A DNA stretch of 64,000 nucleotides, taken from assembly GCF_041248615.1 (NCBI RefSeq), contig NZ_CP158426.1; one strand, written 5' to 3'. Shown piece after piece: positions 12,001 to 15,000 of this stretch. Source of the stretch: Escherichia coli. Its GTDB lineage: Bacteria; Pseudomonadota; Gammaproteobacteria; Enterobacterales; Enterobacteriaceae. The position numbers were made by a program. Position 1 is the stretch's first letter. Each line of letters begins with the position of its first letter.

Positions 12001-15000
12001 TTTCGCGATTATTTAAACTACCTCAGCATGGGACCACCGTCCGCACAGAATTGATTGCGGGGATGACCACTTTTTTAACCATGGTGTACATCGTTTTTGT
12101 GAACCCGCAAATCCTCGGCGCGGCACAAATGGACCCGAAAGTGGTGTTTGTTACCACCTGTTTGATTGCCGGTATCGGCAGTATTGCGATGGGGATATTT
12201 GCTAACTTACCCGTGGCGCTGGCTCCGGCAATGGGGCTGAACGCCTTCTTTGCGTTCGTGGTCGTGGGGGCGATGGGTATCTCCTGGCAGACCGGGATGG
12301 GCGCGATATTCTGGGGCGCAATTGGGCTATTTTTGCTCACGCTATTTCGTATCCGTTACTGGATGATCTCCAACATTCCATTAAGTTTACGTATTGGTAT
12401 CACCAGCGGAATCGGATTATTTATCGCCTTAATGGGATTAAAAAATACTGGCGTTATTGTCGCCAATAAAGACACCCTGGTGATGATTGGCGATTTAAGT
12501 TCTCACGGCGTGTTGTTAGGTATTTTAGGGTTTTTTATTATAACCGTGTTGTCATCACGTCATTTTCATGCCGCGGTGCTTGTTTCTATTGTGGTGACGT
12601 CTTGCTGTGGATTATTTTTCGGTGATGTTCATTTTAGCGGCATCTATTCCATTCCGCCTGATATTAGCGGCGTCATTGGTGAAGTAGATTTGAGCGGCGC
12701 GTTAACACTTGAACTCGCCGGTATCATTTTCTCCTTTATGCTGATCAACCTATTTGATTCATCAGGAACATTAATTGGTGTAACTGATAAAGCTGGCTTA
12801 ATAGATAGTAACGGTCAATTCCCCAATATGAATAAGGCGCTGTATGTTGATAGCGTCAGTTCGGTGGCAGGCGCATTTATTGGTACCTCATCTGTTACTG
12901 CCTATATTGAAAGTACTTCTGGTGTGGCGGTCGGTGGTCGCACGGGGCTGACTGCGGTTGTGGTCGGCGTTATGTTCCTGTTGGTTATGTTCTTCTCACC
13001 GCTGGTGGCGATGGTTCCTCCTTACGCAACCGCCGGAGCGTTAATCTTTGTTGGCGTGCTGATGACCTCAAGTCTGGCGCGCGTTAACTGGGATGATTTT
13101 ACCGAATCGGTGCCTGCGTTTATTACCACGGTGATGATGCCCTTTACTTTCTCGATCACCGAAGGGATTGCACTCGGCTTTATGTCGTACTGCATCATGA
13201 AAGTGTGCACCGGGCGCTGGCGCGATCTGAACCTGTGTGTGGTGGTGGTCGCAGCTCTGTTTGCACTGAAGATTATTCTGGTGGATTAGTAACTGGCGAG
13301 GGTTTCCAGATATCATGAGTTCTGATTACGCAGGAGAACTCATGATCTGGATAATGCTCGCCACGCTGGCGGTAGTGTTTGTGATTGGTTTTCGGGTGCT
13401 GACATCCGGGGCCAGAAAAGCGATTCGCCGTCTCAGCGATCGGCTGAATATCGATGTCGTACCCGTGGAGTCGATGGTCGATCAAATGGGAAAGTCAGCC
13501 GGTGACGAATTTTTACGTTATTTGCATCGTCCGGATGAGTCGCACCTGCAAAACGCCGCGCAGGTGCTGCTCATCTGGCAAATTGTCATTGTCGATGGTA
13601 GCGAACAGAACCTGCTGCAATGGCATCGGATTTTACAAAAAGCCCGCCTTGCCGCTCCCATTACTGATGCTCAGGTCAGGCTGGCGCTGGGTTTTCTGCG
13701 CGAAACCGAACCTGAAATGCAGGATATTAATGCTTTTCAGATGCGCTATAACGCGTTCTTTCAGCCTGCCGAGGGCGTTCACTGGCTGCATTAAAACCGC
13801 TTCGTCTTATCAGCCTACAGACCGCGCCTGGCCTGTAGGGTGGATAAGGCGTTCACGCCGCATCCGGTATCGGAACTGACAGTAGGTGAACGCATTATCT
13901 ACGTTCTATTTACAGCAGCACCTCCAACCCGTGTTTTTGCACAATGCTGAGCAGTTTTAATGAAATGCCATTGGGGCGTTTAGCGCCACTTTCCCATTTT
14001 TGTACAGTTGAAACGCTGGTATTGAGATAGTGAGCGAAGACGGGCTGACTCACTTTTAATTTTTCCCGCAGTGCTTTTATCTCAACAGGTTGTAAGTCTT
14101 GCACGCTGGTCAGGCAGGCTTTGTCAAAAGTACGCATCGTTTCGGCAGAAATAGCATTGACGCTGGACAATCCAGCCGCTGCGCTGTGAATAGCCTCAAA
14201 TGCAGGACTTTTAAATTTAGTTTTTGCAGTCATAGCAGATCTCTGTCAGTTCTTTAGTGTTAATCATTGCTGTCAGTTGGGCTTTCGTCAGGAAGGCATA
14301 ATGCTTTGCAAGTTCACGAAAACCAGCCAGTTCCTGACTATTGATGTTCGACATATCCTGTTTTGCATATAAAAACGTGTAAAACCAATTGCTTCCCCCT
14401 TTTGCCAGAATAATTGCACGCTCACGATTTTGGTGAAGGCGCTTTTTAAAAACGCCACCACCAAGTGCATCAGCTTTACCTTGTTCCGTTTCTAAAATGG
14501 CCCGGCACAACTCTTCATCTGTTATTGCATGAGACCTGGCTTCCCTTGCAAACCATTTGGTTTTAAACACGCGCATATCGTTGAGATCCTGTTATTAAAG
14601 TATATCACCAAGTGCAATACTTTATCCCTTGTTCCCAACACAATCGCGAAAATACATATCACCTTGCCCTATGATTTTTATTTCTTCGAGCAGCCTCGAA
14701 CTTTCCCACAACACCGTAAAAGTTGCAAAAACGTTAAATGCGTCACACATTTCAATGTTAAAGTGGTCGGCTTTTCCCCTGAAACATGCCACGGGTAACA
14801 CCATGAGTGAATTTATTGCCGAAAACCGCGGCGCGGATGTCATCACCCGACCGAACTGGTCAGCCGTTTTCTCGGTGGCGTTTTGCGTCGCCTGTCTGAT
14901 TATCGTTGAGTTTTTGCCCGTCAGTTTGTTGACGCCAATGGCCCAGGATTTAGGCATTTCGGAGGGGGTTGCCGGGCAATCGGTGACCGTGACCGCCTTT

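Follow-up and report, generated by a model that had tools for sequence, protein, structure and literature searches.

The Escherichia coli DNA analysed here, a stretch of 64,000 nucleotides from contig NZ_CP158426.1 (hereafter the window), holds in the spacer between yicN and nepI two small overlapping genes that likely constitute a chromosomal type II toxin-antitoxin (TA) operon of the HigBA2/ToxP-AntitoxP kind, an old and vertically inherited occupant of this site which the K-12-type allele has lost by deletion. The pair is an ordinary TA pair of a known family whose system is already called type II TA in RefSeq, where the two genes are labelled 'type II toxin-antitoxin system RelE/ParE family toxin' and 'helix-turn-helix domain-containing protein', and our literature search yielded no publication dealing with this pair of E. 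coli. An earlier interpretation of the window from its letters only, hereafter the sequence-only reading, had delimited a region (13800-14630) that takes in both genes, the upstream palindrome and an element resembling repetitive extragenic palindromes (REP-like) beside yicN. Its description of a basic protein of 119 residues followed, with a 17-nt overlap, by a helix-turn-helix (HTH) protein of 107 residues agrees with the open reading frames (ORFs), the isoelectric point of the first protein and the HTH profile match reported below, and its assignment to toxin-first modules of the HigBA or RelE type is borne out by profile, structural and homology evidence.

The direction of the polymorphism is reversed with respect to that reading, which had regarded the pair as a compact accessory insertion into the core backbone. 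A direct comparison of the flanks with those of E. coli K-12 DH10B and Nissle 1917 defined the limits of the segment that differs between the alleles (Table 1). As the sequence-only reading had stated for K-12, the site is empty there, and the comparison across strains found the pair absent from both genomes, neither of which has an annotated gene in this spacer. The K-12 deletion has its left breakpoint where the REP-like element ends (13869), and the element itself is conserved in K-12 and Nissle. Within the 41-bp filler of K-12, the sequence CTTTGCCCTGTTCCGTTTC is identical at 17 of 19 positions to toxin codons 29-35, in the correct orientation and order, and both differences are synonymous. 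Its local alignment score of 28 compares with a maximum of 23 in 300 shuffles (mean 16.1, standard deviation 2.1), and this relic maps to the same toxin codons in the alleles of cryptic Escherichia. The second half of the filler, GATCTTAACTCCAGCTCAAG, matches nothing in the pair significantly. Two lineages of cryptic Escherichia, Citrobacter amalonaticus and Klebsiella share the order nepI, toxin, antitoxin, yicN (Table 1), and the pair diverges along with its hosts, with synonymous divergence (dS) saturated towards Klebsiella and long branches. Because of this synteny across genera and the toxin-gene relic in the filler, we regard the K-12 state as the remnant of a deletion and not the present state as the product of an insertion, and the comparison shows the pair as an old, vertically inherited occupant of the yicN-nepI spacer in Escherichia, Citrobacter and Klebsiella. 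Neither a target-site duplication at the segment boundaries nor an integrase homologue in the window was found. In Rfam, a match to the REP-derived naRNA4 (13838-13903) stayed below threshold, reaching 32.9 bits where the gathering score is 59.5, and the only other match was a spurious one to a miRNA.

Both alleles are common in the species. Among 5,426 complete E. coli genomes, the pair is found in 1,715 or 1,716, which include O157:H7 strains and the enteroaggregative strain 042, and the K-12-type scar, counted at 95% identity or more, in 3,667. Roughly two in three E. coli genomes, among them K-12, hence carry one shared deletion allele with the 19-bp relic. Carrier genomes have one copy each, which is always chromosomal and in no case located on a plasmid, and their toxin alleles are at least 95% identical, with the exception of strain HS-02 (NZ_CP172818.1, 3737310-3737598; hit H142), where a divergent allele of 84% nucleotide identity aligns over bases 61-360 only. 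The pair was also encountered on two contigs of about 1 kb (loci L007 and L048) binned in a metagenome-assembled genome of 'Collinsella sp.' (JAIJJM01, Actinomycetota). One of these pairs is of the E. coli type, with 97% toxin identity and a yicN fragment, the other of the K. pneumoniae type with a nepI fragment, and both are almost certainly contamination from Enterobacteriaceae.

The pair is transcribed leftwards and divergently from nepI, and its toxin-first order thus reads from right to left. Both encoded proteins are basic, and the genes flanking the pair in the window are housekeeping transporter genes. RefSeq places the start of the toxin at a GTG codon (14570, 117 amino acids). Since its homologues begin with MR[VI]FKT, where R2 is invariant, we consider the ATG at 14576 the better start.

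The assignment of the toxin is founded on its match to the Pfam family PF06296 ('RelE'), which extends over residues 1-113 on profile positions 1-120 with 142.6 bits (E 8.8e-42) at a gathering threshold of 27 bits. PF06296 is the sole Pfam family matched, and no model of NCBIfam or PADLOC recognised the protein, whose family comprises 850 clusters (50% identity) at E 1e-3 or better. The sequence of Vibrio cholerae HigB2, verified against the PDB entry 5ja9, also exceeds the threshold of PF06296 (34.5 bits, profile positions 8-96 of 120). Structurally, the predicted model of the toxin matches HigB2 best, with Foldseek alignments of only about 20% identity, and appears to adopt a RelE/BECR fold. 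Direct sequence searches failed, and the link between both proteins is based on the Pfam model, on fold searches and on the alignment with ToxP, a homologue from Coxiella burnetii discussed below. This alignment, together with the strand positions in the model, relates K49, R51, R64, Y82 and K84 of HigB2 to K44, R46, R53, Y70 and K72, which are thus the putative active-site residues of the toxin. Four of them (K44, R46, R53 and K72) are invariant across 47 homologues, and the ORF is intact and retains every family-invariant residue. HigB2 is a ribosome-dependent mRNase whose activity is reduced 170- to 3000-fold upon exchange of R51, R64, Y82 or K84 for alanine (PMC5416850), and K49 is given as fifth active-site residue in the Coxiella paper (PMC10098735). 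At its C-terminus, the toxin exceeds HigB2 by about 24 residues, for which the model predicts a helix and a strand. A relationship to PF09907 HigB or to HigB of E. coli K-12 was tested for and not detected. We also considered a conserved C-terminal histidine in an E-I-C-H-D motif as catalytic residue and rejected it: the respective codon covers the start of the antitoxin gene and is always NAT (CAT in 51, GAT in 13, TAT in 5 and AAT in 2 cases, encoding His, Asp, Tyr and Asn), and because all four possibilities are used, its conservation is ascribed to the constraint of the gene overlap.

In the antitoxin, the HTH motif is recognised by the Pfam model HTH_3 (33 bits at a cut-off of 23, residues 52-96), and residues 46-102 align to residues 38-94 of V. 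cholerae HigA-2 (5jaa_A) with an E of 7.9e-10. The preceding residues 5-45 are conserved with AntitoxP of Coxiella, and a conserved segment of about residues 5-41 among them is presumed to be the toxin-binding part. In a model of a toxin-linker-antitoxin fusion, residues 6-41 are predicted with a local confidence score (pLDDT) above 90. The HigB2 antitoxin dimerises through a C-terminal HTH, while its disordered N-terminal segment folds onto the toxin (PMC5416850). Of the profile matches anticipated in the sequence-only reading, the one to RelE (PF06296) was obtained, whereas that to NadS was not, as the antitoxin stays below the curated cut-off (NF041265, 41.3 versus 60). The same holds for the MqsA models TIGR03830 (41.0 versus 61.8) and PF15731 (26.1 versus 30), and the matches to NadS and MqsA are limited to the HTH part. 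A scan of one genome per species revealed 485 relatives, of which 80 loci were kept. In all 80, a homologous antitoxin gene directly follows the toxin gene, and 55 share the identical 17-nt overlap with an ATG start, which makes the pairing more than a coincidence. The ATG of the antitoxin is located within toxin codons Y115-D116, and the overlap probably confers translational coupling. In four of the 80 loci the toxin ORF is interrupted by a premature stop, with homologous antitoxin sequence still found downstream in each (Table 1), which is the usual background of decay in toxin-first TA systems.

Upstream of the toxin gene, a candidate operator is found as an imperfect inverted repeat with 13-nt arms of 85% complementarity, located 19-48 nt ahead of the ATG. 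At the homologous position, relatives ranging from Klebsiella to the betaproteobacteria Vogesella and Rhodoferax contain the core TAGCAC-N3-GTGCTA, whose right half runs into TATAGT or TATACT to form an extended -10 element of the type TGnTATAnT (TGcTATAGT or TGcTATACT). We infer the promoter of the E. coli pair by reading its sequence in the same manner, and place a putative extended -10 in the right arm. HigA2, too, has one inverted repeat as its operator, which reaches across the -10 (PMC11006873).

Table 1. Features of the yicN-nepI spacer (window coordinates) and related loci.
Feature	Coordinates	Strand	Description
yicN	13342-13794	+	left neighbour; pair in spacer between yicN and nepI
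REP-like palindromic element	13813..13869		directly after yicN; common to both alleles
Presence/absence segment	13870..14708		839 bp here, 41 bp in K-12 and Nissle
Antitoxin gene	14233..13910	-	107-amino-acid ORF, ATG start, isoelectric point 9.72; conserved N-terminal segment and C-terminal XRE-type HTH
Toxin/antitoxin gene overlap	14217..14233	-	17 nt; toxin 3' end over antitoxin 5' end
Toxin gene	14576..14217	-	119-amino-acid ORF, ATG start, isoelectric point 9.22; PF06296, HigB2/ToxP-type RelE-fold toxin (predicted)
Toxin codons 29-35 (ETEQGK)	14474..14492	-	counterpart of K-12 scar relic
Putative Shine-Dalgarno AGGA	14590-14587	-	read from sequence
Candidate operator palindrome	14596..14624		TAAAGTATTGCAC-ttg-GTGATATACTTTA in minus-strand reading
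Putative extended -10 TGaTATACT	14599..14607	-	within right palindrome arm; read from minus-strand sequence
nepI	14803-15987	+	right neighbour
L006, Escherichia sp. E1V33			same order; collinear over 5.7 kb, 91% nucleotide identity
L008, 'E. coli' E69			same order; collinear over 5.7 kb, 91% nucleotide identity
L016, Citrobacter amalonaticus			same order
L013, Klebsiella indica			same order
L019, K. michiganensis			same order
L021, K. grimontii			same order
L024, K. oxytoca			same order
L047, K. pneumoniae			same order
L039, Enterobacteriaceae gut isolate			same order
L038, K. spallanzanii			yicN side only; locus begins at toxin gene
L009-L011, L014, L015, L017, L025-L027, L030, L031, L033, L037	about 2110-3020 of the locus		full-length integrase
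L020, L029, L034			partial integrase
L020, L037, L040, L059			interrupted toxin gene; Mixta theicola, Lonsdalea quercina, Candidatus Pantoea formicae, Winslowiella iniecta

Taken by homology, these features would define a mechanism where the free toxin is a ribosome-dependent mRNA endonuclease of the RelE fold that stops translation by means of K44, R46, R53, Y70 and K72 as catalytic set. The antitoxin would neutralise the toxin via its conserved N-terminal segment, and a dimer formed by its XRE-type HTH would bind the palindrome over the -10 and thus repress the operon, with the gene overlap expected to couple translation of the antitoxin to that of the toxin.

The closest experimentally characterised homologue, identified in a search of plasmids, is the ToxP/AntitoxP pair (CBUA0028/CBUA0027) of plasmid QpH1 from C. 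burnetii, which shares the toxin-first order. The identity between ToxP and the full-length toxin is 31% (E 1e-18), and that between AntitoxP and the antitoxin is 55% over 104 residues (5-106, E 4e-37), including the N-terminal segment. ToxP is toxic to both E. coli and Coxiella and inhibits translation in a cell-free system. AntitoxP neutralises it (PMC10098735; Mol Microbiol 2022) and binds both ToxP and the promoter, and the mutation K79E of ToxP, at the position aligned to K72 of the toxin described here, abolished toxicity (PMC10098735). In contrast to the E. coli pair, which resides on the chromosome at a fixed site of the core genome, ToxP/AntitoxP is borne on a plasmid of an obligate intracellular pathogen. 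ToxP also retains a long Gly/Lys-rich β2-β3 loop, which is six residues shorter in E. coli, and the annotated overlap of the Coxiella genes is 4 nt rather than 17 nt. A second relative, HigB2/HigA2 of V. cholerae (PDB 5ja8, 5ja9, 5jaa and 8a0x), is also toxin-first, with a toxin in PF06296, an antitoxin of homologous HTH and the same layout of an N-terminal neutralising segment preceding a C-terminal XRE-type HTH. HigBA2 has a single inverted-repeat operator over the -10, to which the candidate palindrome of the E. coli pair would correspond, although the sequence differs (TGTACGC-N5-GCGTACA compared to the core TAGCAC-N3-GTGCTA in the family of the E. coli pair), and HigBA2 is located in a superintegron cassette (PMC5906591) instead of a syntenic core site. 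Toxin-first order, a RelE-fold toxin and an XRE-type antitoxin are also found in SehAB of Salmonella and HigBA (YgjN/YgjM) of E. coli K-12. We considered the pair as E. coli counterpart of SehAB and rejected this assignment: SehA belongs to another toxin lineage, being 40% identical to HigB of E. coli K-12, and its antitoxin gene spans at least 429 nt, whereas the toxin described here matches PF06296 only. HigBA2 of Acinetobacter baumannii, which has an unrelated toxin with a GP49 domain, was dismissed as a relative.

With respect to its genomic setting, the pair resembles ccdO157, a chromosomal TA system located between folA and apaH in E. coli, which is said to have been described by Wilbaux and colleagues in 2007 and by Mine and colleagues in 2009. 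There as well, a TA pair occupies a core-gene spacer in some E. coli lineages and K-12 contains a short filler. Its toxin CcdB is a gyrase poison of a family unrelated to the toxin described here, and, different from ccdO157, the yicN-nepI pair is syntenic as far as Klebsiella and Citrobacter, with a relic of its toxin gene identified in K-12. Another instance of a TA pair in a core spacer was seen in EC958 (sequence type 131; L086, 25938-26458), where a chromosomal ccdA/ccdB lies between folA and apaH.

Several observations weigh against the proposed assignment. We infer toxicity, cleavage and operator binding of this pair by homology, and SehA, although HigB-like, proved to lack RNase activity (PMC12817084). 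Neither phmmer nor a profile of the 47-sequence subfamily detected a relative of the toxin in the PDB, and hhalign related it to HigB2 with an E of only 0.027 and in a wrong register. The position equivalent to HigB2 Y82, a tyrosine in our protein, is phenylalanine in many relatives, and the β2-β3 loop is clearly shorter than in HigB2, too. Concerning regulation, the E. coli operator (TTGCAC-ttg-GTGATA) departs from the family core by one base per half-site, and a scan for consensus sigma-70 promoters found no site at this position. Finally, the segment has a GC content of 43.3% compared to 52-53% in yicN and nepI. This is the one feature that would fit a foreign origin but, if the pair is foreign, its acquisition predates the divergence of these genera.

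Among alternative interpretations, the first concerns the role rather than the activity of the pair, which might serve in anti-phage abortive infection instead of the control of stress or persistence. Such a role would employ the same molecular mechanism and would not conflict with a HigBA2/ToxP-type operon. Toxins of the RelE/ParE superfamily are widely discussed as defence toxins (PMC11980606), and in other Enterobacterales its neighbours on islands with an integrase include a type I restriction-modification methylase and a HerA-like ATPase, one or the other of which was seen near the pair at two further loci examined. At the present site, however, the neighbours are housekeeping transporter genes, the toxin finds no match in PADLOC-DB 2.0, where the antitoxin obtains generic HTH matches only (RmrA with E 5.6e-6 and HTH_VI), and the sole match in the phage collection was a contig of a Salmonella genome, so that we consider this role unlikely.

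Less probable still is a RelE-fold toxin that acts on a target other than ribosome-bound mRNA, either on RNase III, as found for SehA, which lacks RNase activity and inhibits this enzyme (PMC12817084), or on gyrase in the manner of ParE. The mentioned variation between Tyr and Phe, the shortened loop of the subfamily and the C-terminal helix and strand beyond the reach of the Pfam match of HigB2 would be compatible with this proposal. Conversely, the functional residues of SehA reside in an extra C-terminal helix of its own in a different lineage, HigB2 is the best structural match, four of its five active-site residues have invariant equivalents and ToxP, which is clearly homologous, inhibits cell-free translation. 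We thus see only a small chance for a different target.

The view that the spacer was empty in the ancestor and received the pair only recently by horizontal transfer, in line with the accessory insertion proposed in the sequence-only reading, appears very improbable. It would account for the absence of the pair from K-12, Nissle and 3,667 other genomes and for the low GC content, and the family is capable of movement. A conserved tyrosine integrase of 292 amino acids (PF12835 plus PF12834; full length in 13 loci, partial in 3) is encoded 1 kb upstream of the pair and divergent from it in 16 of the 80 loci, which belong to Pectobacterium, Erwinia, Serratia, Lonsdalea and others. This suggests a shared small mobile island carrying this TA family, and more distant relatives are present on 183 plasmid records, of which Coxiella contributes 19. 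In a neighbour-joining tree, whose low resolution led us to draw no direction of transfer, the integrase-linked copies form a tight cluster of short branches and the syntenic copies are found on long branches. Against a recent arrival in E. coli stand the equivalent order in cryptic Escherichia (at 91% nucleotide identity), C. amalonaticus, six Klebsiella species and an Enterobacteriaceae gut isolate, the divergence of the pair with its hosts, the relic in the filler of K-12 with its synonymous differences only, and a window and segment boundaries that lack an integrase and a target-site duplication, respectively.

Both genes are subject to purifying selection, as judged by ratios of nonsynonymous to synonymous divergence (dN/dS) towards two cryptic Escherichia alleles, which amount to 0.08 and 0.15 in the toxin gene and to 0.07 and 0.11 in that of the antitoxin. 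Together with an intact toxin ORF that carries a normal product name in 60 of 60 sampled genomes, this renders it most improbable that the module is a decaying remnant with an inactive toxin and an HTH protein kept only as transcription factor, a fate reported for the ccd genes on the chromosome of E. coli O157:H7. In favour of such a remnant, chromosomal TA pairs often decay, the toxin is interrupted in the mentioned four of 80 related loci, the pair is lost from two-thirds of E. coli genomes and the E. coli operator is degenerate compared to the family core.

Elsewhere in the window, nepI is followed by a gene (16188-27317) for an inverse autotransporter adhesin of 3,709 amino acids, named IatC in RefSeq and EaeX/Air in strain 042, which contains an array of 19 tandem repeats of 291 bp (97 amino acids; 19641-25163). 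The otherwise near-identical NZ_OW967178.1 has nine repeats fewer and encodes a protein of 2,836 amino acids, and the repeat number therefore varies between close strains. An ETT2-associated island between nepI/iatC and yicS, at about 27370-34600 as placed from NZ_OW967178.1 (56750-63711, shift +2619), carries a frameshifted eilA, which encodes a regulator of the HilA family, and genes for IpaD/SipD-like and SipB-like translocators and a chaperone of the SycD/LcrH type. K-12, where yicS directly follows nepI, is devoid of this island. Two genes for hypothetical proteins (2510-2992 and 3268-4737) between ilvN and uhpA seem to form one more small accessory block within a core region. Beside tRNA-Sec (selC), at about 38600-38900 (from NZ_OW967178.1, 67985-68286), a 126-bp fragment of a rhuM pseudogene probably remains from an island that had integrated at selC.

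Collectively, our analysis has corrected the direction of the yicN-nepI polymorphism, identified the relic in K-12 and named ToxP/AntitoxP as closest characterised homologue. It reveals no new biology in kind, and the pair is an uncharacterised member of a well-populated family. Its location illustrates how an apparent insertion relative to K-12 can in fact be a deletion in K-12, for which the 19-bp relic combined with synteny across genera provides a clean case, and its relatives illustrate two lifestyles of a single TA family, which is chromosomally fixed in Enterobacteriaceae and linked to integrases on islands of Pectobacterium, Erwinia and Serratia. That the pair has kept one and the same spacer in Escherichia, Citrobacter and Klebsiella, and has done so under strong purifying selection, raises the idea of a domesticated module with a host function rather than just a selfish leftover, to which we assign a low probability. 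The polymorphism of two alleles, with the pair in 32% of the genomes and a single shared scar in 68%, could reflect balancing or lineage-specific selection, for instance in phage defence or growth control in the host, and the shortened loop and additional C-terminal element could give the toxin a target preference other than that of HigB2. About one third of complete E. coli genomes carry a toxin that is lacking in K-12 and that is probably active in arresting translation, which matters when results obtained in K-12 on persistence, phage resistance and the cross-talk of TA systems are extended to other strains.

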